Source: a virus (taxonomy: Duplodnaviria > Heunggongvirae > Uroviricota > Caudoviricetes). From it: a stretch of DNA of 50,979 bases. The notes beneath the pieces were generated by a model. The model saw only the letters and a list, made by a program, of their open reading frames with translations, did no database searches and was not told the DNA's origin. This document shows positions 1 through 50,979 of this stretch, one piece after another. The stretch is from IMG/VR virus record IMGVR_UViG_2526164596_000013; one strand, written 5' to 3'. A program made the translations under genes and the position numbers. Within the stretch, counting starts at the first letter, position 1. Each line of letters opens with the position of its first letter.

Positions 1-573
1 GTGTTATCTTACTTAATAGCAATTCATTTTGTTTTACTTGGGAATTCTTCTGATTTAAAAAGCTTTTGGAAATCTGAAGTAATACGGCGGGAGTATATGG
101 ATATCTGGAGGCTTTTCAGAGAAAAAAAACAGCGTAACAGGAATTTCCTTTTCTGGTGGCGGCTGGCTAACGAAATGTATATTAATGGTAATAAATTACA
201 TAAGAAAGCTGCTAAAAAGTTAAACAATAAAATAATTAACAAATTTGGTTGCGAGATTGGACTGGGAGCAAAAATTGGAAAAGGGCTAACAATTCCTCAT
301 CACGTTGGAATTGTTGTTCATTTTGCTGTTGATGCTGGTGAAAATTTGGTGTTACGACAGAATACTACGATTGGACAGATAGATGGTGACATACCTGGTT
401 CAAGAGTAAAAATTGGTAGTAACGTTGATATCGGAGCTAATTGTTGCATCATTGGATTATCACGTAAAATCGGGGATAATGTAAAAATAGGCGCAATGTC
501 TTTTATAAATAAAGATATACCATCAAACTGCACATATATAACTAAAAAGAGCGGTGTTGTATTGTATAAATAG
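1..573 (+). CDS. hexapeptide-repeat (left-handed beta-helix) acetyltransferase-like protein; may be 5'-partial at window edge
   Basis: ORF begins at base 1 with GTG; product has tandem [LIV]G-hexapeptide repeats (GLGAKIGKG, IGSNVDIGANCCIIG, IGDNVKIGAMS); region is markedly AT-rich relative to the phage body; stop TAG 571-573 followed by hairpin terminator. Confidence 0.55.
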   Translation: MLSYLIAIHFVLLGNSSDLKSFWKSEVIRREYMDIWRLFREKKQRNRNFLFWWRLANEMYINGNKLHKKAAKKLNNKIINKFGCEIGLGAKIGKGLTIPHHVGIVVHFAVDAGENLVLRQNTTIGQIDGDIPGSRVKIGSNVDIGANCCIIGLSRKIGDNVKIGAMSFINKDIPSNCTYITKKSGVVLYK

Positions 574-580
574 AGCACAT

Positions 581-620
581 AAAGCCATCGATATTTCTAT
601 CGATGGCTTTTTCTTTTTAT
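581..620 (+). terminator. rho-independent terminator after acetyltransferase gene
   Basis: inverted repeat aaagccatcgata/tatcgatggcttt with 4-nt loop followed by ttctttttat. Confidence 0.5.
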
Positions 621-1194
621 TGTGGGGCGACTGGCCACTCAATATCCGCTGCTACTGTTGTATCAACACGGTTCAGCAACACCCGATACTTTTTCCAGGC
701 TTCCAGCAATGAGGTTTCTTCCTCCGTTGCGATTTCCAGATCTACAGCATCCTGAAGTGGCGCAATATGCTCACTGGCTACCTGCATCAGGCTGTTTTTG
801 TTTCTTCCGCCTCCCGGATCCGGAACAGTTTTTCTGCTTCTGCATCTTTCACCCAGGCTGTGCCGTTCCACTTCTGAAACTCCCCTTCCGGGGATAACCA
901 AGTGGCATTTTCCGGTAACGGACCGAGTTCAGAAATAAATAACGCGTCGCCGGAAGCCACGTCATAAACCGTTTTACCCCGATGATCTTCAACGAGATGC
1001 CACGATGCCTCATCACTGTTGAAAACAGCCACGAAGCCTGCCGGAATATCTGGCGGTGCAATATCGGTACTGTTTGCTGGCAGACCTGTATGAGGCGGAA
1101 TATATGCGTCACCTTCACCAATAAATTCATTAGTTCCGGCCAGCAGATTATAAATTTTTATGGTCCGTGGTTGTTCACTCATTCTGAATGCCAT
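617..1194 (-). pseudogene. tfa: tail fibre assembly protein Tfa, split into two frames by a 1-nt shortfall in a homopolymer (T5 at 795-799 on plus strand)
   Basis: ORF 787-1194 encodes the Tfa N-terminal part ([24 protein letters not shown]...) and ORF 617-901 in another frame encodes the C-terminal part (...[15 protein letters not shown]...[14 protein letters not shown]); join requires one extra A in the acaaaaac run. Confidence 0.7.
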
Positions 1195-4100
1195 TATGCA
1201 AGCCTCACAATATAGTTAAATGCGATGTTTTTGACGGTGTTTTCCGCGTTACCAGCAGCGTTAACGGTGATGGTATGTCCATGTGAACCAATCGCAACGG
1301 AGTGCGTATGAGCACCAATACCGACAGTATGTGCGTGTGCACCTGCGCTTGCAGCAGTACCCGATACAGAGTGCGTATGAGCGCCTGCAGAAGAAGTGTT
1401 AACACTGTATTTAGAATAATCAGGTGATCCACTTCCCGGAGCACCACTGGAACCACCTGAAACAAATGTCATCGAATGGGTATGTGCACCGGCTGAAGCA
1501 GCCGTACCGCTAACACTATGGGTATGCGCACCAGTGTTATTCGTGGATTTAGTGCCGTAATCAAACGACGATGTGGTTTTCGTCCCCAAATCCGTACTGG
1601 ATGCGCTGGCGCTGTGGGTGTGCGATTTAATGCCGTCCTGTTCCTGAGACAATACGGCACGACCACTGGCGGGCTTGCCCTTAATCGTCCAGCCACGCAT
1701 ATCAGGGATCACGCCTGACGGATAAGCAACTGCAAGTTTCGGGTAAGTAGATTTGTCAAAAGTCTGCCCCTGCATCAGGGCATAACCAGACGGAACGGTA
1801 TCTGATGGCCACGGGATTGGTGCACCGACTGGATAAAACTCTGCAGGAGGATGAGCCGAGGTGTAAAGCTGCGCCCACGGCGACCAGTTTGCGTCGGTCG
1901 TATCCCGTCGTGAACGAATAAATGCCGGAGCATGAGCACCGCTTGTACCACTCCAGCCGATGAGTAACTCACCTTCGCCAACGGCTGTCATCCCTTTCAG
2001 GTGAATGATATTTCCATACGCTGTTGGATATCCGTTGTTATACACCTCGTATAACTCAAGACCTGTTGCCCCCTGTGTATTGTCTGTCAGCGCGGTTACC
2101 CGACCTTTTGAAGACAGATTAACTGATGATACTGCTGTTCCACCTGACGGTAACGCCCCGATCTCTGATGCCGTTGGCTTATTTCTGGAGTTATAGTCCC
2201 TTCGCCAGCCAGGTGAATAATCTGTTCCGTGATTAATATAGGTAAACTGGGCGTTAGTTGTTCCACCACCAGTGGAGGTGGTCGGTGTGGTAATGCGGAT
2301 CGTCATCGCTGACTTTATCCCCATTACTTCAATGACAGCTCCGGCGAGATGAATATTACCGCAGCCAGTATCAGTAATGATTTTATTATTGCCATAAGAC
2401 CAGGAACCCTTGCACATCCAGTATGGATGGTTAAATGCTCCCTGAGAATCCAGCCACTCGATAAACTGTGCAGTCGTCCAGTTTCCTGTTGTTGTGCTTA
2501 CTGACCCACCGAAGGCACGGCAGGCACCAATATTTTTCGTAAAGGTGTCTTTGCCAGGGATATCCGCACCGTTCTGATCTTTCTGCAGACGTTTCTCAGC
2601 ATTGTCATTGGCTGCTTTTACTGCCTTTGGCGTTGCCGCCAGCGTTTCAGACGTGCTGTTGGTCGCGCTGCTTAGCTGGATTATCCCTTTCTGTGCTGTC
2701 GTTGCATCCTGTGCGGTGTATTTCCCGTTAGCCAGGTCATACGCGGCCTTAACGGCTTTTGGCGTTGCCGCCAGCGTTTCAGACGTACTGTTGGTCGCAC
2801 TGCTGAGCTGTACTATCCCCTTTTTCGTCGTGCTCGCATCCTCAAGCGCCACGGCGGATGCAATATCCTCTGCCCGTTTTGCCGCTGTCTCAGCGCGCGT
2901 TGCTGCAGATTCCGCCGTACTTTTGCTCTGAGCTGCCGCCGTCGCACTGCCAGCTGCCTCTGTCGCCTTCGTGGATGCCGTCGTGGCGCTACCCTTCGCT
3001 GCTGACGCCTGTCTGGTCGCCTCATCTTTTGAAGCAGACGCAGATGATGCCGATGACGACGCCGAACTGGCTGACGATGCGGCAGCCGTTTTTGAGGATT
3101 CTGCGCTGGTTTCCGACGCTTTCGCGTTCGTTTCGGATGTCTTCGCTGCGGAAGCAGACCTCGCTGCTGCGCTGGCCTGTTCAGTGGCTTCGCCAGCCTT
3201 CGTTGTGGCTGTTGAAGCAGACGATGCGGCGCTTTCTGCCGATTTTCCGGCGGCGGTGGCACTGGCTGAGGCCTGCCCGGCACTTGTTGACGCTGCACTG
3301 GCAGACGACGCAGCCGCTGTTTTTGAGCCTGCCGCAGCCGAGGCGCTCTGTCCCGCTGCCGTTTCAGAAGACCTGGCGTTCGTCTCTGACGTTTTTGCCG
3401 CCTTCGCGGAATTTCCTGCCGCTGTTGCCGAGGAAGCTGCGCTACTGGCGCTCGAGGATGCGTTCGTTTCTGATGATTTTGCCGCCTCTTTTGAAGCCGC
3501 CGCATCCCGGGCTGAGGTGGCAGCTTCTGACGCTTTCGTAGTCGCGGTGGATGCAGAAGTGGCTGCTGATTGTTGTGACGCTGCAGCATTCGTTTCTGAC
3601 GTTTTCGCGGCACTGGCACTGGTAGCTGCCGCGCTTTTTGAGGACTCTGCAGCGGCAGCACTTTTTGATGCTTCAGTGGCCTTTGTTGATGCCGTTCCTG
3701 CGCTGGAAGTCGCTGACTGAGCCGACGACGCGGCCTGTCCGGCTGACGTGCTGGCTGCGCGTGCTGAGCCTGCAGCATCAGTCGCATGGGTTGCCGCCTC
3801 ACGGGCTGATGTGCTGGCATCACTGGCTGACTTCTTCGCGGCTGCCGTGTTCTGTGCCACCACGGACGCGTTACGCGCCACCTCTTCCACCATCAGCTCA
3901 AAACGGCGCAGTGCCTCCGGACGGGCATCATCCTCCGTCATGGCACCGAGAAAATCATTCAGCGTACCGGGTCGGGAATCTTCATACACTGTGATGGTCC
4001 CGGCATGTGACGGTGGGAATCCTTCCACCAACAGAATAACGCTGTACTGACCGTACTCAACGTCCATACTGTAACGCCCGGCTTCATCCGGATTTTCAGA

Positions 4101-4223
4101 TGCCAGCGTGTTCACCACCACCGTGGTACTGTTACGTTTTGCTTTCAGCTGGATTGTGCAGTTCTGTACCGGTTTTCCTGTGCCGTCTTTCAGTACACCT
4201 GAAATTTTTACTGCCATATTCAC
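1194..4223 (-). CDS. stf: side tail fibre protein Stf (lambda-like, expanded Ala/Ser/Thr-rich repeat region)
   Basis: 1009-aa ORF; N-terminus [26 protein letters not shown] and C-terminus ...[38 protein letters not shown] match lambda Stf as recalled; overlaps tfa start. Confidence 0.85.
2627..2820 (-). repeat. tandem direct duplication (132-bp period) inside stf
   Basis: near-identical 62-bp cores at 2627-2688 and 2759-2820 (ttggcgttgccgccagcgtttcagacgt[g/a]ctgttggtcgc...), encoding KGI[VI][23 protein letters not shown] twice. Confidence 0.6.
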
Positions 4224-4281: not shown

Positions 4282-4881
4282 TCAGAATTTATAACCAACA
4301 CCCACGATGAATCCGTCAGTGCGCCAGTCACCACTGCCGGAGCCTTCATAAGCGACATCAATGGCCACGGATTCGGTCGGGTTAAACTGCACGCCAGCTC
4401 CCCACGCCAGAGACGTGTTGCTGTGGCGACCGTCATCACTTCCGGTCAGCACATCGTGCTTTTTCCCCTTGTTGTCAGTTACGCGGAGATAATCCCCGGA
4501 GAAAGTCGACACACGGCTGTAAGCCACACCCGCCATCGCATACGCGCTGAACCATTCATTCACGCGTACAGACGGCCCCGCCATCACGCTGAACCAGCGG
4601 TTACGCACGGAATCTTCATGCCAGCGGGTATCGCTGTAGTGCGTTTTTTGCTCATCCTCAGCATTGGCATAACTGAAGGACGTAATCAGCCCCAGCGCGT
4701 CCGTAAACTCATAACGGTATTTCACGTTAATCCCGTTCAGATTATCGCTGCCGGGAGCGTTCGTACGGGCATGAAGATACCCCGCGCTCAGTGTGGACTG
4801 ATGTTCAGACGCCCATGCAGGCGCACCGGATACGGACAGACAGATGGCTGCGGACAAAATGGCTGCACAAACTTTACGCAT
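4282..4881 (-). CDS. lom: outer-membrane protein Lom (Ail/Lom family)
   Basis: 199-aa ORF with signal peptide MRKVCAAILSAAICLSVSGAPAWA and beta-barrel-like C-terminus ending GYKF; position between J and stf as in lambda. Confidence 0.85.
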   Translation of the reverse strand: MRKVCAAILSAAICLSVSGAPAWASEHQSTLSAGYLHARTNAPGSDNLNGINVKYRYEFTDALGLITSFSYANAEDEQKTHYSDTRWHEDSVRNRWFSVMAGPSVRVNEWFSAYAMAGVAYSRVSTFSGDYLRVTDNKGKKHDVLTGSDDGRHSNTSLAWGAGVQFNPTESVAIDVAYEGSGSGDWRTDGFIVGVGYKF

Positions 4882-4903
4882 AATTACCTCTCGCTTTTCT
4901 GCA

Positions 4904-4930
4904 ATAAAAAAGGCGCCATTTCTGGCGCCC
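4904..4930 (-). terminator. rho-independent terminator downstream of J
   Basis: on minus strand hairpin ggcgcc-agaaat-ggcgcc followed by TTTTTT (plus aaaaaa 4905-4910). Confidence 0.5.
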
Positions 4931-4948
4931 GTATATGGGTTATAAAAT

Positions 4949-7900
4949 TCAGCTGATACTGATGCCTGCGGTGGCTTTCTTCATCACCACAACCAGCAAA
5001 TCGCTGATACTTGCTGTGGGATACCAGTTATTCACCAGCCATGCTGACACCGAAAACTCCAGTGTCATGTGACCGTGACCGGCAGGCATATCAATAACAC
5101 CACTGTAAATCAGCGTATTATCCAGCGCGGTACGGTTATAAATTTCAGCACCGTTTTTCCGCACTATCAGACGGCATGAGGAGTAAATATCAGTATGCTC
5201 TTTCTCATGTTTAGCGCCGCTGAATGCCACCGCCGGAATAACAATCTGCCGGTCAAACGGCTGATCGTCATAAACCCTGACGGTAATGGTCCCTGATGGC
5301 CACCGCTCCGGTGCACGGGAGTCCCGGGGGAAAGCTTTGCCCACTGTTTTAACGAGATCGCCTTCAATCTGGTTGGCGGACAGTTTTCCCAGAACCCGAC
5401 AGTTTTCGTTAATCGTGACGTTGTTGAGCGTCCCGGAGTTCGCATTCACGTTACCGCTGATATCGGCATTTTTCGCCGTCAGCCGCCCGTCCGGTGTCAG
5501 GGAAAATGCCGGAGGATTACCGCCGCTGGTAATGGTGGGAGCCGTCAGGTATTTCAGGAACACTTCGTTCATGAATATCTGATCGCCCTGACCAACAAAC
5601 ATCGGCTTTGTGTTGCCATTCGCAGGATTAATCATCGCAATCCGGTCAGCAGCCAGAAGCACCTGACTCTGCATACCTGCTGGCGTATTCTCAATACCGG
5701 CTCCGATACCCGCAATATAAAGGCGTCCGTCCTTCATCTGCTGCAGTTTCACGGCCCACATGCTGTTCAGGTTATTATTTGTATCAACCTGAACTTTCTG
5801 TATCTGCTGGATTGCCGCGCTCTGATTTTCCAGTTTTTTATTGACGGTCTGCGTGATTTCATTGCTGACATTCGTAATGGACGTCCTGATTTCAGCCAGA
5901 TCAGGCGCAAGCTGACCGTTATCAATCTGTGTCCACAACTCCTGAGCCAGATGGGTTTTCCCTATCTCTCCTTTGAAAAAATCCAGATAGCCGGATGCAT
6001 CATCACTCGGCTGGCCAACAGCCTCCACAAATGCCGATTTGCCAACAGTATTCACACTGCGGATATAAAAATAATAATCATGGCCCGGTTTGATATTGAT
6101 ACTGGCAGCTATCCAGTACAGCGCCGAGCCAAGATAGCGGGCTGCGGTTTCAACCTGCCTGATATCCGCAATCCGCTTTTCCGAGAACCAGAACTCAAAC
6201 TGTACCGTCGGGTCATAAACGGCAAGATGCGGCGTGGCGGTTATCTGAAAATAGCCCGGCGTCAGCTCAATCCGCGACGGTGCTGCCGGTGCGGCAATCC
6301 GGAAGGTGGTGGTGGCAGGTTCACCCTGCTGGCCATAGCTGTTTATCGCCCGCACCGTCAGGGTGTATTCCCCGAGCGGCAGGCCGCTGAAACGGTGCTC
6401 CGTGTCTGCGGTGATGGCGGTGGTCACCAGTCTGGCATCCGTTCCCTTACCACTGGTCAGGCGCAGACTGAAGCGCACACCCTTCACCACCCGCGGCGTG
6501 TCCCATTTCGCCTGCGCCAGATACTGGCCGTCAGCTGCGCTCACCTCCACCGTCAGGTGCTGCACTGCCGGTGGGATGACGCTGTTCAGGGAACCTGACT
6601 GCGGCTCAAAGCGGGCACCGTTATCCACGATGGCTTCTTTTTCCGGTACGTGCTGCACCGCCGTGATGGCAAAGGTGCCGTCCGTGTTTTCCCGGATGGA
6701 GACACAGCGGAACAGGCGACGGCGCAGTGACGGCAGGGAGAGTCCCCACACCCCGTATGTCTCCACACCATCAGGCAGGGTACTGACCTGTATCCGGTCC
6801 GGCGCGGGGTGTTCGGTGATGTCCACACTCACCGGCTTACCGCTGCCGTTAATCAGGTTCACCGTGGCGGCACCGGTCTCCGGAAGTGTCACTTCACGGT
6901 CCAGCGTCAGGGTGCGGGTGGCAGCATCAATGGACAGGACACGTCCGCCGGTCAGAGTCCCGGCATAGTCGTTATCACAGATTTCAATGATGTCACCGGG
7001 TGTGTGCCGCAGCCCCTGAGACCCGAGCGTGAAATCCACCGTCTGCGTTTCCAGCAGTTCAGTCTTTATCACCCACAGTCCGGCACGGTGGGCCTGACCG
7101 CGGCTGGTACAGCCGAACGCGTCCATCTTCAGCAGGTTGCGTCCGTAGCGCAGTATGGCTTCCGGGTCTTCCACCAGTTCCGTGGAGGTCTGCCAGCCGT
7201 TCTGCGGGTCGGTGTAATTCACCTCCACCGCCGTGTGCCGGTCCTTCAGGGCACTGAAGCTGTAGCGGAATCCCACGCCGTTATCATCCACCACCACATC
7301 GCTGTTGGTGTACGGCCACACCACATCCGACGGGCGGTCCTGAACGAACGTCAGCGTCTGACCGTTCCATACCGGCATACAGCGCATCGCAGAGCAGAAA
7401 TCACTGAGAACGTCCCACGCCTTACGCTGTTGTGCCAGGTACGCATTAAAGGTCATCCGCGGCTCTGTCCCCCCGAAACCATCCGGGACCGTCTGGTCGC
7501 AGTACTGCCCGATGGCATACAGCGCCCACTTGTCCACATCCGCCGCCCCCAGACGTTTTCCCATGCCGTAGCGCGGGTGAGTCAGCATGTCCCACAGGCA
7601 CCAGGCCGGGTTGTTGCTGTATGCCGGTTTCAGACTGCCGTCCCAGATACCACTGTACGTGCGTTTTTCCGGGTCATAGTTTGACGGCACCTGGATGATG
7701 CGACCGCGGATATGGTAGTTCACCGTCATCTGCTGGCCGCCGAACTGCTCCGCATCCACCTGCAGCCCCACAATGGCCGTGTTCGGGTAGCACTGTTTCA
7801 CATCGATGATTTCGGTGTATGACGACCACAGCGTCTTATTCTGCAGCTGGTCCGTGGTGCTGTCCGCCGTCTCCCTGACCATCCGGATGTTAAAGGGCCG

Positions 7901-8422
7901 GGGAGGCAGATTATCCAGAATCACCGAGGCCAGGAACTGTGAGGTGGTCTTGCCGTTAATGGTGACGTCCTTTTCCGTCACCCAGCGGCCATTACGCTGT
8001 AACTGAATCAGAATCCGGACAGAGGAAGGATTACGGTCGCCCTTTGACGTGGTCTGCACCAGTGACTGCACCCCGAAGGTAACCCGCAGGCGGTCAATGT
8101 TCGCGGACGTAATGGTGCGCGTCACCGGTTTTGCCTTCGTCACTTCCACGCCCAGTCCGGTTTCAGCTCCGGAGGACTCAAAGCCTTCCGGTGGTGTCTG
8201 CTCCTGCTCCCCGGCGCGCCAGACCGCCGTCACACCGTGTATCACGGGATTGCCGTCCGTGTCCGTCAGTGGGGTTTTGTTCACCAGAATACTCTGCAGT
8301 CCCTTCACCGGACCTTCTATCGGTCCCTCACCAATCGCATCAATCACACTCATCATCTGCGTGGATTTGAGATTATCCTTCGCCTCACGAGGCGTGTGTG
8401 CCTTACCGCCACCTTTTCCCAT
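4949..8422 (-). CDS. J: tail tip / host-specificity protein J
   Basis: 1157-aa ORF; N-terminus [37 protein letters not shown] and long internal stretches match lambda J as recalled. Confidence 0.9.
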
Positions 8423-8627
8423 ACAGCCTTCCCCTGAATAAATTAACCGCCACTTGCCATTCCGTACAGAAGTCGGATATCCTTCGCCCGAAAAGCATGA
8501 AACACATTTCTGCCATGCTAAAGAGAAACCCCGGTATCAGCAGATACCGGGGTTTTCTTTCATGCCCACCGATAATCCTGTTGGTTAAAACCGGTAATGG
8601 CATAAAAATTCTGAATATCTTCACATT

Positions 8628-8760
8628 TTCACACACTGACTGTGGCGCTTATAATTTCGCTGCGTTAGTGTTTTTTTGCCCGAGTAACAAAAACAACTCC
8701 TTAACATTGATCTTCATTTGTCTGTCCCCGCAGCTCCGCGATCACTGCGGGATTTTTTTA
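8628..8760 (+). ncRNA. candidate small RNA: sigma70-like promoter plus intrinsic terminator inside the I-J intergenic insertion
   Basis: TTCACA (8628-8633) - 16 nt - TATAAT (8650-8655); about 70 nt downstream a hairpin ccccgcag/ctgcggg (8726-8751) followed by attttttta; no convincing ORF in between. Confidence 0.3.
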
Positions 8761-8764
8761 TGTT

Positions 8765-9445
8765 TTATCCCTGTCGCCCGATAACCACGACCGTTCCGCC
8801 CCCGCCTTCATCACGGGTGCTGATGTCCTGGGATATACGGCGGGAGCCAACCAGCATTTCCCCGTAAGGCACCGGCATCGGGTTCCCCTGGGCAATCATG
8901 TTATCCAGCGAGGAAAAGTACGTGTTCTGTCTGCCGTTATCCGTTGCGCGGTAATCCGGTGTTTTTGCCTTCGGGGCCAGCATCTGGGCCACACCGCCCA
9001 GAATCATGCTGGCTCCAAGTGAAAACAGCATCGTGGTGGCAGAAAAACCACCGGCTGCCAGGGCTGAACCCCATAACGCCATTGATGCCCCGGCAGTGAA
9101 GAAAGAGCCCACGATGGCTGCCGCCCCCAGCACAATCTGCAGTCCACCCTTTCCGGCCCCGGCCAGTCGCGGCACAATATGGATGACCGTTCCCTCACCC
9201 AGCTGTTCGTGAAGACGGGCGTACACCGCCTCCGGTGCCGTGTCATAACCGGCAATACGTATCTGGTACCAGCCTTCGTTCATCTGACGGCGAAAGCCCG
9301 GCACCTGTAACGACAGCGCCCGGATGGCTTCCGCTGCCGTGTTCACATACAGGCTGAGGCGGCGGCCAAATCGTTGTAAATCCCCGTGAAGGCAGATGCG
9401 TGCCAGTGGCGGTGACGCCAGACAGAATGCGTTCGTCGTTGCCAT
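8765..9445 (-). CDS. I: tail assembly protein I
   Basis: 226-aa ORF; MATTNAF...ARICLHGDLQRFGRR...TYFSSLDNMIAQGN...VVVIGR matches lambda I as recalled. Confidence 0.8.
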   Translation of the reverse strand: MATTNAFCLASPPLARICLHGDLQRFGRRLSLYVNTAAEAIRALSLQVPGFRRQMNEGWYQIRIAGYDTAPEAVYARLHEQLGEGTVIHIVPRLAGAGKGGLQIVLGAAAIVGSFFTAGASMALWGSALAAGGFSATTMLFSLGASMILGGVAQMLAPKAKTPDYRATDNGRQNTYFSSLDNMIAQGNPMPVPYGEMLVGSRRISQDISTRDEGGGGTVVVIGRQG

Positions 9446-10086
9446 TTTTCGGAATACCTCTCCCGTTTACTCAGTTGTTCAGGCAGATGGTGAAGCAGCT
9501 CACCGTTGCCGCAGTAAATGGCGGCATGGTTCGGTACCGAAGCACCAAAGCAGCACAGCAGAATATCGCCCGCCTGTGCAGAGGACAGGGGCACCCGGTA
9601 AAAGCCGGTGACCGCCATATTGTCCAGGTAAAGGTTCTGACCGTTGCGCCACCAGTCATCCTCGCGATGAAAATCCGGCATCTCAGTCCCCGCCAGATGA
9701 TAAGCATCCCGGAACAGCGTGTAACAGTCCGTCACCCCGTGCTCAAAGCGCCGTCCTGTCAGATGTGGCACACAGCGGAATTTGTGAATGTCACCCCGGC
9801 AGACCAGCCACCAGGGCAGTGCGCTTTTTATCTGCAGCCGCCGGTCAGCCTCGCTCAGCCAGGGCAGCCCACCGGGATGACTGTGGACCAGTGCCACAAT
9901 CTCCCCCTGCATCTCTGCCCGCAGCCAGTCTTCCGGTGCGATACGAAAATACGCCTCCGGCTCTGCAGAAATATTCACACAAGGGATATACCACTCCCCC
10001 TCCGGCGTGCTTATCACGAAGCCACACGACTCCGCAGGCGCACACCGCCGGGCATGCGCCAGAATCGCTGATTCAGTCTGTGTCAT
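9343..10086 (-). CDS. K: tail assembly protein K (NlpC/P60-MPN family); 3' end overlaps I in another frame
   Basis: start chosen at MTQTESAILAHARRCAPAESCGF (ATG at 10086) inside the longer ORF 9343-10347; HSHPGG motif and catalytic Cys region present; 3' extent uncertain. Confidence 0.65.
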   Translation of the reverse strand: MTQTESAILAHARRCAPAESCGFVISTPEGEWYIPCVNISAEPEAYFRIAPEDWLRAEMQGEIVALVHSHPGGLPWLSEADRRLQIKSALPWWLVCRGDIHKFRCVPHLTGRRFEHGVTDCYTLFRDAYHLAGTEMPDFHREDDWWRNGQNLYLDNMAVTGFYRVPLSSAQAGDILLCCFGASVPNHAAIYCGNGELLHHLPEQLSKRERYSEKWQRRTHSVWRHRHWHASAFTGIYNDLAAASACM

Positions 10087-28591: not shown

Positions 28592-30445
28592 TTATGATGA
28601 TGCCGGTGCATTTATCTCCAGCACCAGACTTTCTATCTCAACGCCATACGTTGCATTTTTGGTAATATCCGTCAGCGTCAGTGCATTTAGTCCCACTGCC
28701 AGACTGTCTTTTATGGCCTGGAATGCCGGGCCAGCCACTCCATTCAGTTTCGGAGTAACCGTGGCACTGCCGGCGGTGAACACCAGTTCCAGCGTTTGCC
28801 AGTCATTACTGTAATTCCCGAACTCGCCCAACTTTGTGTTTCCTGCTTTCTTGTGATGCATCAGATTCAGTTTGCCGTCTGTGGTCTGGGTGAAGAACGA
28901 CATCAGGAACGGGTTACCAGTCCCGGTCATCGCCACGACGTCAGGTAACGCTACATCGGTATACAGATAAATTCCCAGGCCGAACTGGTTGTTGGTCAGT
29001 GCGCCTGACAGTCGAAACTTACAGCTCAGTCTGCCACCCCGTGTCAGCAGGGAGACTGCGTCATCCACCGGGCGCGTCAGGGACCAGGCTTTATTGCTCT
29101 GCTTGGTGATCTTAAATACACCCTCTGACAACTGAATTCCGCCATTCTTAATGCTCCAGCCCTGCGCAGCAGCGTCTCCGGCTGTCGGCAACAGGGAGAT
29201 TGTGCGTACGGATGCATCTTCAGACGGCCCCGATGGCGTGTCGCCGCCGGGCGAGGGTTTGATTTCCGGTGCCTTACCACTGATGAAGGCTGAGGTGCGC
29301 CCGGCTGCGTTCAGAATAGCGGTTGCCATACGATCCGGAATAATGCTCCTGCGCGCCCATGAACTGAAATGTGTCGGGCGGTTTGATGATACCTGGTTTC
29401 CATTCGTTCTCGATGCCGCACCGTAATATCCTGATGCCGGAATATCCGGATCTTCTGCCGGTGCGTTAGTGGCGGTATTGACGCCGTTACCGTCTGTCAT
29501 GAAGGGCACAAAATAAACGCCCTCACTCTCCCTGTTTTTATACCCGCCGTACACGGTGTCGTACTGGGTAGCGTATGTATTTTTCCAGTAATACGTCGTG
29601 TCACCACAAATCCACGGCACATTTACAGCACTGCCACCATGACACTGCGCGTTAAACACAGTGAGGTCAGCACGAAACTGCTTCAGCATGGCTGTAAACA
29701 GCGCAGGTTGCTGTGCGTAGGTGGCGGCGTTCATGTCAAACTCTCCCTGCATCCAGCACACCGCCAGCAACACATTTTTCGGGTTCTTCTGTAATGCAGC
29801 TTTAGTGCGCGCAATCAGGTCCTGATATAACGGTTTACCCACACCCCAGCGTGCCGAATCCTGGCTGGCCCCCGCGTCCGCACTGAATGTCCCCTCCGCG
29901 CCCTTGGTGAATGCCGAACCACCACGACAGCATGGTACCAGCAGGATCCCCGCGTTATTCGGGATATACGGGAGCAGTTTTTTGGCAATATGTAAGCCCT
30001 GGCCGACACAGCCGTACTGCCCTTTGCTCAGGTCTGCCTTCGGATGATTCAGCGTACTCATATCCTGCACATCATGCAGACAGTGGTCAGCCGGGATGAT
30101 GTCGTTATACGTACAACTCTCTCCACCCGGAGTTACCGTGCTGCGGCGCGCCAGCTGTTTAATGCGCGGATCCGGAGCATCGTAAGAATCCGGTAACGGA
30201 AGCCCTTCACCGTAGGCCATGCCGTTGGACTGTCCGGCAAGCACAACCACGTAGAACCAGTCCGGCTCAGATGAAGGGCCGACCTGTGGATCTCCTTCAA
30301 TAGCCACCGCCTGCATCAGTGTGTACGGCGTAATGGCAACCGGTCCGCCATATGGCTGCCAGCCCTCTTTCAGTTTGTGTGTCAGCTTTTCCGCAAGGTC
30401 TGACGGCGACGCCGCCCTGACAACATCATAGTGTTTAAATGCCAT
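28592..30445 (-). CDS. NanS-p-like sialate O-acetylesterase (N-terminal DUF1737-like region + SASA esterase), Stx-phage-type moron
   Basis: 617-aa ORF starting [38 protein letters not shown]..., GGSAF/GQSN-type esterase motifs; same position (between tRNA cluster and S) as the large esterase ORF of Stx phages; GGGAGGA SD. Confidence 0.7.
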
Positions 30446-30933: not shown

Positions 30934-31010
30934 TGGCGCGTTGTACTGGATTCGAACCAGTGACCGATTGCTTAGAAGGCAATTGCTCTGTCCGGCTGAG
31001 CTAACAACGC
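30934..31010 (-). tRNA. argO: tRNA-Arg (anticodon UCU)
   Basis: rc gives GCGTTGTTAGCTCAGCCGGACAGAGCAATTGCCTTCTAAGCAATCGGTCACTGGTTCGAATCCAGTACAACGCGCCA; cloverleaf with 7-bp acceptor, anticodon loop CTTCTAA, encoded CCA. Confidence 0.85.
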
Positions 31011-31023
31011 AGGGTACAGATAA

Positions 31024-31100
31024 TGGACCGCCATCGAGGACTCGAACCCCGCGCAACCAGCTTCGAAGGCTGGCGCTCTATCCTGATGAGCTAATGGCGG
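31024..31100 (-). tRNA. argN: tRNA-Arg (anticodon UCG)
   Basis: rc gives CCGCCATTAGCTCATCAGGATAGAGCGCCAGCCTTCGAAGCTGGTTGCGCGGGGTTCGAGTCCTCGATGGCGGTCCA; anticodon loop CTTCGAA; acceptor stem CCGCCAT/ATGGCGG; encoded CCA. Confidence 0.75.
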
Positions 31101-31107
31101 TATGTGA

Positions 31108-31179
31108 TGGTGGCCCTTGCTGGATTTGAACCAGCGACCTGGCGATTATGAGTCGCTCTCACCACTGAGCTAAAGGGCC
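31108..31179 (-). tRNA. ileZ: tRNA-like gene with CAU anticodon (Ile2/Met-type), atypically short
   Basis: rc gives GGCCCTTTAGCTCAGTGGTGAGAGCGACTCATAATCGCCAGGTCGCTGGTTCAAATCCAGCAAGGGCCACCA (72 nt); good acceptor and T arms, loop CTCATAA, but the anticodon stem 5' side appears about 4 nt short. Confidence 0.55.
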
Positions 31180-31577: not shown

Positions 31578-32004
31578 AAGCTGTGTGACGAAGTAACCAC
31601 TCTTAACAGCATAACCAATTTTTTACGTACGTAAACCACTAAATGATATTTGCGAGAATGCTACCGAGTATTGAAAACACCACTACAAATACATAAGCAA
31701 ATCTCAACAAATAACCAACAAATAATTTCCAGTGTTATTTTTAGCCTGTTTAAATTGAACCTTCAAATTATAGAGCACTTATAAATAACAGCCGTTAATA
31801 TAAATTGGCTAATAGATTTATTTTTATTCAGCCAAGAGCCATGAATAGGATTCGATAGAAAAAAGTTCAGATAAAAATAGAGATCTACTTCACAAATCAA
31901 ACGAGAAACCAAAACTTACATCTTGAAATAATCACATTGATTAGATGAATATTTATCGCGCAGTGACATCATTTTTTAATAATAGTTCAAAAAAAGGGCT
32001 CACG

Positions 32005-33087
32005 ATGAAAAAATTAACAGTGGCAATTTCTGCTGTAGCTGCATCAGTACTGATGGCGATGTCTGCTCAGGCAGCTGAAATTTATAATAAAGACAGTAAC
32101 AAGCTGGATCTGTACGGGAAAGTTAATGCTAAGCACTATTTCTCCTCTAATGATGCAGATGATGGTGATACTACTTATGCCCGTCTTGGCTTCAAAGGTG
32201 AAACCCAAATCAACGATCAACTGACTGGTTTCGGTCAGTGGGAATATGAATTCAAAGGCAACCGCGCTGAATCTCAAGGTTCCTCCAAAGATAAAACCCG
32301 TCTTGCCTTCGCTGGCCTGAAATTCGGTGACTACGGCTCAATCGATTACGGCCGTAACTACGGTGTAGCATACGACATCGGTGCGTGGACTGACGTTCTG
32401 CCAGAATTCGGTGGCGATACCTGGACCCAAACAGATGTGTTCATGACTGGTCGCACCACTGGTGTTGCAACTTATCGTAACAACGACTTCTTTGGTCTGG
32501 TTGATGGTCTGAACTTTGCTGCTCAGTATCAGGGTAAAAATGACCGCACTGACGTAACTGAAGCTAATGGTGATGGTTTCGGTTTCTCCACTACTTATGA
32601 GTATGAAGGATTCGGTGTAGGTGCAACCTATGCTAAATCTGACCGCACTAATAATCAGGTTATCTACGGTAACAACAGCCTGAATGCATCTGGTCAAAAT
32701 GCTGAAGTATGGGCAGCTGGTCTGAAATATGATGCGAACAACATCTATCTGGCTACCACCTATTCTGAAACCCAGAACATGACTGTTTTTGGTAATAACC
32801 ATATTGCCAACAAAGCACAAAACTTCGAAGTAGTTGCACAATATCAGTTCGACTTCGGTCTGCGTCCGTCCGTTGCTTACCTGCAATCTAAAGGAAAAGA
32901 CTTGGGTGCGTGGGGTGATCAGGACCTGGTTGAATATATTGATGTAGGTGCAACCTATTACTTCAACAAAAATATGTCCACTTTTGTTGATTACAAAATC
33001 AACCTGATTGATAAGAGCGATTTCACGAAAGCATCTGGCGTTGCTACCGATGATATCGTTGCTGTAGGTATGGTTTACCAGTTCTAA
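32005..33087 (+). CDS. outer-membrane general porin (OmpC/NmpC/Lc-like), phage-borne moron
   Basis: signal peptide [23 protein letters not shown] then [17 protein letters not shown]... and C-terminal ...VAVGMVYQF typical of enterobacterial trimeric porins; opposite strand to the late genes, between Q and the lysis genes as nmpC is in DLP12. Confidence 0.85.
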
Positions 33088-49665: not shown

Positions 49666-50979
49666 ATGGATAAAGTCAAATATCCAACAGGCGTCGAAAA
49701 CCACGGCGGCACATTACGCATCTGGTTTAATTTTAAAGGTAAACGTGTCAGGGAAAATCTTGGTGTCCCTGACACTGCCAAGAACAGGAAGATCGCCGGG
49801 GAACTGCGGACATCAGTATGTTTTGCCATCCGCACAGGAAGCTTTGATTATGCTGCACAGTTCCCTGACTCCCCCAACCTTCAGGCTTTTGGGGTAAGTA
49901 AAAAAGAAATTACGGTGAAGGAACTTGAAGAAAAGTGGCTGGATCTGAAACGAATGGAAATCTCTGCAAATGCATTCAATCGCTATGAATCCGTTGCAAG
50001 AACGATGGTTCCGAAAATTGGAGGCAGTAGACTGGTATCATCGGTAACCAAAGAGGAATTGCTGTATATCAGGAAAGATTTGCTTACCGGGTATCAGAAT
50101 TCAACGAAAAACAAAGCAGCAGCAAAAGGACGGAGCGTCGTTACTGTAAATTATTACATGACGACAATCGCTGGAATGTTTCAGTTTGCTGCAGATCACG
50201 GTTACTTAGAAGCAAATCCCTTCCAGGGAATTAAGCCTCTTAAAAGAGCCAGGGCAGAGCCAGATCCGCTAACTCGTGACGAATTTATTCGCCTGATAGA
50301 TGCTTGCCGACATCAGCAGACGAAAAACCTGTGGTCATTGGCTGTGTACACAGGAATGCGTCACGGTGAACTGGTCTCCCTGGCCTGGGAAGATATCGAT
50401 CTGAAGGCAGGAACAATTACCATCAGGCGCAATTATACGAAACTTGGTGAGTTCACTCTACCGAAAACTGAAGCAAGCACAAACAGGGTTGTGCACCTTA
50501 TCCAGCCCGCTATCAGTGTCCTGAAAAATCAGGCTGAAATGACAAGACTGGGTAAGCAGTACAACATCAAGGTGCAACTACGTGAATATGGACGTTCAGT
50601 GAACCATGAATGTACTTTCGTGTTTAACCCTCAAGTGGTTAGAAAAAGCGAACAGGTAGGTTTTGTCTACAAAGTCGATTCTGTAGGTGACTCATGGGAA
50701 ACAGCCATTAAGCGTGCAGGGATCAGGCATCGAAAGGCATACCAGTCACGACACACTTATGCGTGCTGGTCATTATCTGCCGGAGCAAACCCAAGCTTCA
50801 TTGCCAGCCAGATGGGCCATGCAAGTGCCCAGATGGTATTCAATGTATACGGAGCATGGATGACTGACAGCAATGCAGAACAGATCGCAATGCTGAATCA
50901 GAAGCTGACAGATTATGTCCCAATGATGCCCCATAGTCACCAAAGTGACACCAGAGGCTTATTAAAATCAGTAAGTTAA
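49666..50979 (+). CDS. int: tyrosine integrase (phage integrase family)
   Basis: 437-aa ORF with GGAGG SD; C-terminal catalytic residues in ...RHTYACWSLSAGANPSFIASQMGHASAQMVFNVYGAWM...; stop at the last bases of the window. Confidence 0.9.
   Translation: MDKVKYPTGVENHGGTLRIWFNFKGKRVRENLGVPDTAKNRKIAGELRTSVCFAIRTGSFDYAAQFPDSPNLQAFGVSKKEITVKELEEKWLDLKRMEISANAFNRYESVARTMVPKIGGSRLVSSVTKEELLYIRKDLLTGYQNSTKNKAAAKGRSVVTVNYYMTTIAGMFQFAADHGYLEANPFQGIKPLKRARAEPDPLTRDEFIRLIDACRHQQTKNLWSLAVYTGMRHGELVSLAWEDIDLKAGTITIRRNYTKLGEFTLPKTEASTNRVVHLIQPAISVLKNQAEMTRLGKQYNIKVQLREYGRSVNHECTFVFNPQVVRKSEQVGFVYKVDSVGDSWETAIKRAGIRHRKAYQSRHTYACWSLSAGANPSFIASQMGHASAQMVFNVYGAWMTDSNAEQIAMLNQKLTDYVPMMPHSHQSDTRGLLKSVS

Follow-up and report, generated by a model that had tools for sequence, protein, structure and literature searches.

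Why does a short, AT-rich acetyltransferase gene stand next to the tail-fibre genes of a prophage, and on what does its product act? The gene occupies the first bases of a 50,979-nucleotide stretch of DNA from a tailed virus (IMG/VR record IMGVR_UViG_2526164596_000013; this stretch, at its full length, is called the window below). In public annotation it carries the name "serine acetyltransferase", and also sacF or sat. The reason for its presence has been stated to be unexplained (PMC9603915); another paper does no more than count it among predicted "fitness" genes, and it has come up as a signature sequence for Shiga-toxin-producing strains (PMC5737611). Searches of the literature on the acetyltransferase, tail-fibre assembly, superinfection exclusion and lysogenic conversion, including the CP-933T spelling variant, returned annotation-level mentions and no functional paper, and the O157 transcriptome and proteome literature that mentions CP-933T names other genes or none.

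A complete gene with its own terminator

The acetyltransferase coding sequence spans positions 1–573 on the plus strand and is complete, with a GTG start and a TAG stop, encoding 190 residues of a predicted CysE/WcaB-like hexapeptide-repeat O-acetyltransferase. The preliminary description had placed the true start beyond the edge of the window. Base 1 is instead the first base of the GTG, and in Escherichia coli strain 15A (O111:H21, locus L001), which is 99.98% identical to the window over its first 5 kb, an AGGAG sequence is found 7 nt upstream of it. P1-like homologues have an ATG at the equivalent codon, and their similarity to the window begins there. Homologues are 188–201 residues long and cover 97–100% of the query. 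An alternative ATG at codon 33 (window position 97) was considered and rejected, as coverage by PHROG and by the homologues runs from residues 1–15 and the P1-like homologues start at codon 1.

The GC content is 0.33–0.36 over positions 1–600, against 0.46–0.64 in the tail-gene DNA up to 8 kb. Downstream of the stop codon there is an intrinsic terminator on the plus strand (582–619), scanned on the identical L001 DNA, which is composed of a 13-bp stem (582–611) with a 4-nt loop, followed by TTCTTTTT. Its RNA is predicted to fold with -22 kcal/mol (z = -4.7), and none of 200 shuffled sequences folds equally well. The hairpin fills the 43-bp gap between the convergent stops of the acetyltransferase gene and tfa, and the spacing between the ends of these two genes is constant across the viral loci. 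On the other side of the gene, about 95 bp of AT-rich upstream DNA are common to the lambdoid and P2-like contexts and contain promoter-like hexamers, which in the P2-like copy read TTGAAT-17-TATAAT. Promoter prediction finds hexamers upstream of the gene in all three contexts scanned, at a frequency not above that in shuffled AT-rich DNA. The features of a moron are present: low GC content, orientation against the tail operon and a terminator of its own. The open reading frame, the Pfam matches given below, the base composition and the hairpin bear out the earlier description of a hexapeptide-repeat acetyltransferase with lower GC, on the strand opposite to the tail genes and with its own terminator.

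The neighbouring genes are all on the minus strand. The tail-fibre assembly gene tfa (Caudo_TAP; 617–1194) is split in the window by a 1-nt deletion (T5 for T6, near 795–800) into two open reading frames, 787–1194 and 617–901; L001 has an intact 192-residue copy (Caudo_TAP, E 7e-43). It is followed by the side tail fibre gene stf (1194–4223), with Pfam phage_tail_N, Phage_fiber_2 repeats and a Collar domain, and then by lom (4282–4881) and J (4949–8422).

Location within the prophage

In strain 15A, the sequence resembles that of E. coli K-12 across yecD and as far as L001 position 11105, in the 5′ end of yecE. The similarity resumes on the integrase side about 23 bp earlier in K-12 coordinates, which defines the att core. 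The attR boundary, which the preliminary description had left upstream of the window, was in this way located at a host/phage junction in yecE, and the acetyltransferase start codon (L001 12001) lies 896 bp inside the prophage from there. In between there are a gene of the DinI family (Pfam E 1e-18) and what is left of a Pin/Cin invertase. This remnant consists of the helix-turn-helix C-terminus with an internal stop, and it matches P1-type Cin at 66–69% over residues 146–180 by tblastn. An SOS-box-like CTGT-N8-ACAG, noticed by eye, precedes the DinI-like gene.

The att core, located in strain 15A, is absent from the window itself, which stops at gene boundaries: its last base is the last base of the integrase stop codon, and several IMG/VR prophage contigs also begin at base 1 of the acetyltransferase gene. 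The window looks like a gene-delimited prophage call rather than a true att-to-att element. The host element is a lambdoid prophage integrated in yecE.

As the outermost gene of the window, with a GC content unlike that of the phage structural genes, the acetyltransferase gene might be taken for a host gene just beyond attR, a reading to which we give next to no probability. Because K-12 similarity ends 896 bp outside the start codon, within yecE, the gene is phage cargo and not a host gene; in addition, phage-type genes lie between the junction and the acetyltransferase, the K-12 yecD–yecE interval has no acetyltransferase gene, and copies are known from phage genomes and phage-plasmids.

A separate family within the CysE/WcaB clade

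The protein is matched by Pfam Hexapep (E 6e-06; 26.2 bits, just below the 27-bit cut-off) and Hexapep_2, by NCBIfam models of left-handed β-helix acetyltransferases, and by PHROG 2154, a phage family without an assigned function (E 5.9e-84; residues 15–190 against profile positions 5–181 of 185). The AlphaFold model (pLDDT 96.2) has five N-terminal helices (residues 2–82) and then a β-helix, with short strands from about residue 85, and Foldseek relates it to β-helix acetyltransferases with a probability of 1.00. An identity as a membrane acyltransferase-3 of the Oac type is unsupported, the Pfam matches being to hexapeptide families only and the model being that of a soluble helical and β-helix protein. 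A scan with the PADLOC defence models gave no family at E ≤ 0.1.

The nearest solved structures are all CysE (Foldseek TM 0.72–0.75), and the sequence matches in the PDB are also best to CysE (E 1e-13 for the protein alone, 1.6e-25 for the family profile). Besides the architecture of a helical N-terminal domain followed by a β-helix, the protein shares with E. coli CysE the His/Asp catalytic dyad: in the alignment, His100 corresponds to His158, Glu85 to Asp143 and Gln120 to Gln178, and the His100 column holds histidine in at least 90% of 106 family sequences. Together with the public annotation, these matches and the retained catalytic His/acid pair would agree with a genuine serine O-acetyltransferase, that is, a phage metabolic gene supplying O-acetylserine for cysteine supply or the CysB regulon. 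We regard this as highly improbable. The score falls short of the cut-offs of the CysE equivalog models (62.4 versus 210.65 bits for TIGR01172, 39.8 versus 397 for NF008349), and the residues that would hold the substrate are missing. In CysE, serine and cysteine are bound by Asp92, Asp157, Arg192 and His193, in E. coli numbering (PMC9547175). The Asp92-Pro93 segment has no counterpart in the phage protein, Asp157 is replaced by Pro99 in a variable column, and the columns of Arg192 and His193 are also variable across the 106 members. The phage protein has 190 residues, against 273 in CysE, and its N-terminal helices, with 82 residues, are about 60 residues shorter. The C-terminal tail of CysE, which binds CysK and mediates cysteine feedback, is absent: the phage protein ends about 10 residues after the β-helix, whereas CysE is about 35 residues longer and ends in GDGI. 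No cys genes adjoin the gene in the loci examined. The acetyl-transfer machinery appears to be retained and the L-serine pocket to be lost, and the database name "serine acetyltransferase" is probably wrong.

Other equivalog models are missed as well. EpsC, though the best NCBIfam match, gives 76 versus 150 bits, and WcaB gives 54 versus 196, the gene being placed in a prophage and not in the wca cluster. By BLASTP, WcaB is slightly better (35% over 109 residues, E 1e-15) than CysE (33%, E 7e-11). WcaB, the colanic-acid O-acetyltransferase of E. coli, resembles the phage protein in size (162 versus 190 residues), in its CysE-like β-helix and in the "xHH/xHG" motif, and it is likewise without the CysE serine-binding residues and the C-terminal tail; the K-12 annotation gives a lipid-linked sugar intermediate as its substrate. 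The two differ in the N-terminal helices, where the phage family has an FWWRLA motif and the phage copies have a hydrophobic first helix. From these comparisons, the protein is best described as a family of its own within the CysE/WcaB clade.

Convergent adjacency to tfa in different phage types

Of 5,426 complete E. coli genomes, 530 carry the gene, as 533 chromosomal and 66 plasmid copies. In 528 of the 530, tfa adjoins it: a query with window positions 1–1200, which hold both genes, was covered to at least 80% in 528 genomes, compared with 530 for the gene alone. In 68 of 80 IMG/VR loci a Tfa homologue lies within 400 bp in convergent orientation, and a further 4 loci stop at a contig edge. 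The convergent pairs include acetyltransferases of 43–66% identity combined with Tfa proteins of 39–50% identity, and the same layout is found beside Collar-type fibres in Citrobacter phage phiNP (47% identity) and Hafnia phage yong2 (35%). Sequenced phages with the gene are JL22, vB_EcoM-Ro157c2YLVW, phiNP and yong2.

The surroundings of the pair vary. Apart from the lambdoid prophage at yecE, it is found in a contractile-tailed prophage at yfhH, accompanied by the same invertase remnant, and in the three P2-like prophages inspected (O157:H7 TW14359, O104:H4 and 2011C-4315) it is placed centrally in the tail region, between gpU and tfa. What stays constant is that the gene and tfa lie side by side and convergent; a place at the end of the prophage is not conserved. 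The preliminary description had recognised at this prophage end a classic position of lysogenic-conversion genes; the phage origin stands, through the yecE junction and the copies in phage genomes, and so do the moron features, but the terminal position does not, the gene being mid-tail in P2-like elements and within the C segment in P1-like ones.

The fibre gene upstream of tfa differs between contexts, and the site downstream of tfa also holds other morons, namely a methyltransferase gene and a macro-domain gene. The linkage is to tfa and not to one receptor-binding tip, and a favoured insertion site alone could be an alternative account of it. More distant members of the family have other settings: one end of a P2/HP1-like element beside zntA, a place adjoining the integrase of one P2-like phage, and plasmids with type IV pilus genes (bfp, prepilin peptidase and others), IS66 and an EspF-like fragment. 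The acetyltransferase is not among the genes listed in the P2/P4 hotspot paper.

P1-like elements and the invertible C segment

In phage JL22, inverted repeats of 602 nt, 99% complementary to each other, enclose a 5.46-kb segment beside cin, the classical invertible C segment, and the gene is inside it. From cin onwards come Sv′, U′ and the acetyltransferase gene, with tfa and stf on the opposite strand. In another P1-like contig (L161) the segment is inverted relative to both flanks, so that R, Sc, Sv′, U′ and the acetyltransferase gene are co-directional, and in other P1-like contigs cin has been lost and the segment is fixed. [quoted passage not shown] The block that these elements have in common with the window runs from the start codon through tfa to the last ~650 nt of stf, which travel with tfa and the acetyltransferase gene into P1-like phages; by blastn, window positions 2–1331 and 1548–1837 are 89–95% identical to JL22 and Ro157c2YLVW.

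In the lambdoid context, no significant inverted repeats or crossover sites were found around the gene, and the invertase remnant is dead. These two observations suggest that an invertible fibre segment stood here ancestrally and gave way to the cassette.

The deep linkage to tfa, the location of the JL22 gene in an inverted-repeat-bounded segment beside cin and its co-directional position downstream of R-Sc-Sv′-U′ in the inverted contig raise the question of whether the enzyme acts during lytic growth on the phage's own fibre system (the fibre, its chaperone or the receptors of the dying cell), with Cin inversion as a P1-like expression switch. We consider this quite unlikely. The gene is convergent with tfa in every context, with the terminator in between; no inverted repeats flank the lambdoid copy, whose only trace of an invertase is the dead remnant; and in the P1-like elements the ~490-bp spacer stands between U′ and the gene. 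Moreover, β-helix acetyltransferases of the CysE/WcaB clade act, to our knowledge, on small hydroxyl or amine compounds and on sugars, not on proteins.

Purifying selection

Pairwise comparison of alleles taken from the lambdoid, myovirus, P2-like and P1-like settings gave dN/dS values of 0.04–0.19. The largest dS in the close group is 0.49, and a 69%-identical allele stands at about 1.8. Substitutions are concentrated in the first 40 residues, and the β-helix is nearly invariant. As judged from these alignments, the acetyltransferase gene is under purifying selection. The carrier strains span serotypes O157, O111, O103, O121, O45 and O104, and this diversity of O serotypes makes an O-antigen-specific sugar an unlikely target.

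Clues to the acceptor

Neighbourhood statistics were obtained from 53 chromosomal relatives, sampled as one genome per species. About 43 of the 53 loci have heterogeneous neighbours unrelated to glycans, and there is no dominant partner family. The argument that the family is always found in a polysaccharide operon was rejected, since only about 10 loci have envelope-glycan neighbours. Among these, a 43%-identical member from Leminorella grimontii, with the FWWRLA and GAMSF motifs, is located within the waa LPS-core operon, in the order GT1, GT8, WaaY, one open reading frame and the acetyltransferase, followed by a convergent WaaL. In two Pseudomonas genomes a member is directly 3′ of a Wzy_C/WaaL-type gene, and another Pseudomonas locus has a member beside an MsbA-like ABC transporter, a small kinase and pseudaminic-acid genes. 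Elsewhere, members have an FkbM methyltransferase gene or genes for capsule synthesis as neighbours.

The phage copies are linked to fibres with Collar domains. A Collar-type domain is also found in the LPS-core-binding fibres T4 gp12 and P2 gpH, and the LPS core is the receptor of P1, P2 and Mu. We know of no description of O-acetylation of the E. coli LPS core. Taken together, the relatives in LPS clusters, the Collar fibres and the loss of the serine-binding residues point to an LPS sugar as the likeliest acceptor, and to masking or serotype conversion as the likeliest role.

The mixed neighbourhoods leave room for a different acceptor, such as a small molecule, a xenobiotic, an antibiotic, colanic acid or ECA, or for a passenger of low effect at a tolerated insertion site. 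Family members are found as stand-alone genes on plasmids beside bfp and IS66, in islands near zntA and at random chromosomal sites, the fibre type beside tfa varies, and the methyltransferase and macro-domain morons share the site. We consider this explanation rather unlikely, although it deserves serious consideration. Against it, selection on the gene is strongly purifying and some relatives are in LPS-core operons, and chance insertion alone could hardly account for a synteny with tfa that is still seen at 35–43% identity in phages of Escherichia, Citrobacter and Hafnia.

Discussion

The reading that we favour, and to which the sequence comparisons lend about an even chance, is that the gene is a moron expressed in the lysogen, whose product O-acetylates an envelope glycan, probably LPS, and thereby changes recognition by tail fibres. 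The enzyme would use acetyl-CoA at the cytoplasmic face of the inner membrane and place the acetyl group on a sugar of a lipid-linked envelope glycan before export, an LPS core or O-unit intermediate being the likeliest. The altered surface would then change recognition by Collar-type fibres, by other phages and by antibodies, resulting in lysogenic conversion or receptor masking. As a cassette with tfa and the fibre tip, the gene would pass on the masking function together with the fibre type. The preliminary description had proposed acetylation of a surface polysaccharide as a block to superinfection, and this is still the most probable function on indirect grounds, namely the missing serine-binding residues and the relatives in LPS clusters.

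A narrower version, in which the protein is an LPS-core O-acetyltransferase that masks the receptor of the Collar fibre, one cassette with fibre tip and chaperone serves lambdoid, P2-like and P1-like phages, and inversion of the C segment couples the host-range switch to masking, is unlikely as a whole. In such a system, a flip of the C segment would change the fibre type and at the same time place the acetyltransferase gene in or out of the late tail-fibre transcript.

The nearest functional precedent would be NeuO, the polysialic-acid O-acetyltransferase of the E. coli K1 prophage CUS-3 (PMC3046976, PMC13001214). Both are soluble hexapeptide-repeat O-acetyltransferases, predicted in the present case, encoded by prophage accessory genes, and NeuO modifies a surface glycan and affects recognition by phages and the immune system. 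NeuO belongs to another β-helix subfamily, and no NeuO chain is found among the 60 PDB matches listed for the present protein. NeuO is also phase-variable through a 5′ heptanucleotide repeat, whereas no tandem repeats were found in the acetyltransferase gene or in the 900 bp upstream of it, and NeuO acts on the K1 capsule, while the carriers of the present gene span many serotypes.

Other phage-encoded systems offer parallels in arrangement or in effect. The genes cor (phi80, N15 and HK022) and llp (T5) encode small envelope proteins that block FhuA directly, and they are located beside receptor-binding genes. The likeness would be that of a masking gene tied to a receptor-binding module and moving with it; the difference is that cor and llp do not encode enzymes, whereas the present gene encodes a predicted one. 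Oac of Shigella phage Sf6 is an integral-membrane acyltransferase, encoded next to int and att, that acetylates LPS so that the surface of the lysogen no longer matches the phage receptor. Oac is of an unrelated membrane family and its gene lies beside int/att, while the present protein is a predicted soluble β-helix enzyme encoded beside tfa, yet the proposed biology is alike (for serotype conversion in Shigella, see PMC3636060). By analogy with these systems, the gene is probably a further case of a known class, the prophage-borne modifiers of surface glycans.

The gene is found in about one tenth of the complete E. coli genomes, and the listed carriers include the main Shiga-toxin serotypes O157:H7, O111, O103, O121, O45 and O104:H4. 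If its product were a passenger enzyme with another substrate, it would be an ordinary moron. If the LPS-core masking and cassette reading is true, an undescribed O-acetyl modification of the E. coli LPS core would be encoded in about 10% of the complete genomes, including those of O157:H7. More generally, should LPS be what is acetylated, this would be a clear case of a receptor-masking gene moving with a tail-fibre module between unrelated phage types, and a widely distributed phage gene governing susceptibility to phages and the antigenicity of the surface, with a bearing on phage therapy, typing and serology.

Borders of the element

The first base of the window is the first base of the acetyltransferase coding sequence, and base 50979 is the final base of the integrase stop codon. 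The window is a prophage call cut at gene limits; both att sites and ~0.9 kb of DNA belonging to the prophage fall outside it. The full element sits in yecE, with a core of ~23 bp. Beyond the window, in the nearly identical locus of E. coli strain 15A (L001), the outermost prophage gene, adjoining attR, is a DinI-family gene (L001 11368-11616, + strand), which is preceded by an SOS-box-like CTGT-N8-ACAG motif at about L001 11338-11357. The order of dinI, acetyltransferase gene and tfa in L001 is also found in Citrobacter phage phiNP, where a hicAB pair intervenes.

The acetyltransferase gene and the tail-fibre region

Likewise beyond the window, the C-terminal helix-turn-helix of a Pin/Cin-type DNA invertase survives as a remnant with an internal stop codon. 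It occupies L001 11720-11845 on the - strand and lies upstream of the acetyltransferase gene at a distance of 155 bp. A Pin/Cin-type remnant is similarly located upstream of the acetyltransferase gene in a different prophage, a myovirus integrated at yfhH (loci L085 and L087). The presence of the same invertase remnant upstream of the gene in both prophages suggests that a tail-fibre segment here was ancestrally invertible and that the acetyltransferase cassette has taken the place of part of it. In P1-like phage-plasmids, the gene is enclosed by the Cin-invertible C segment, bounded by 602-nt inverted repeats (4401-9864 in phage JL22, L083; 1402-6865 in a second P1-like contig, L161). This segment occurs in both orientations among sequenced P1-like elements, and in one orientation the acetyltransferase gene reads in the same direction as the late tail-fibre genes R-S'-U'.

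Accessory genes other than the acetyltransferase also adjoin tfa in related prophages (5937-6605 in loci L101-L105; 6204-7094 in L088). In one of these settings a class I methyltransferase gene is flanked by two tfa copies, and in another a macro-domain protein gene is placed between the fibre gene and tfa; their presence there indicates that the tfa-adjacent site is an insertion hotspot.

The window's copy of tfa reads as two overlapping ORFs (787-1194 and 617-901, - strand) because a homopolymer run near 795-800 has lost 1 nt (T5 versus T6 in strain 15A). In that strain, which is 99.98% identical, tfa is unbroken and encodes a 192-residue Caudo_TAP protein. The deletion may represent either a true inactivating frameshift or a sequencing error. 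The middle of stf (2600-3900, - strand) is a long repetitive stretch rich in Ala, Ser and Thr, with a GC fraction of about 0.6, a strongly negative AT skew, long spurious ORFs in other frames and two 87-bp repeats (2604-2690 and 2736-2822; 85% cross-match).

Other cargo genes

One candidate for a second cargo gene that could alter the cell surface is a general porin gene, full-length (31945-33087, + strand; Porin_1, E 3.7e-153) and annotated as OmpC in strain 15A, which lies downstream of the Q antiterminator region. A SASA-family sialate O-acetylesterase-like gene encoding 617 aa and three tRNA genes (Arg-tct, Arg-tcg and a CAT-anticodon tRNA annotated as Ile) lie at 28592-30445 and 30934-31179 (- strand). 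In Stx phages, this position is occupied by stx; the strain 15A annotation contains no toxin gene in the stretch between the tRNAs and the esterase-like gene. A single element thus holds an acetylesterase-like as well as an acetyltransferase gene.
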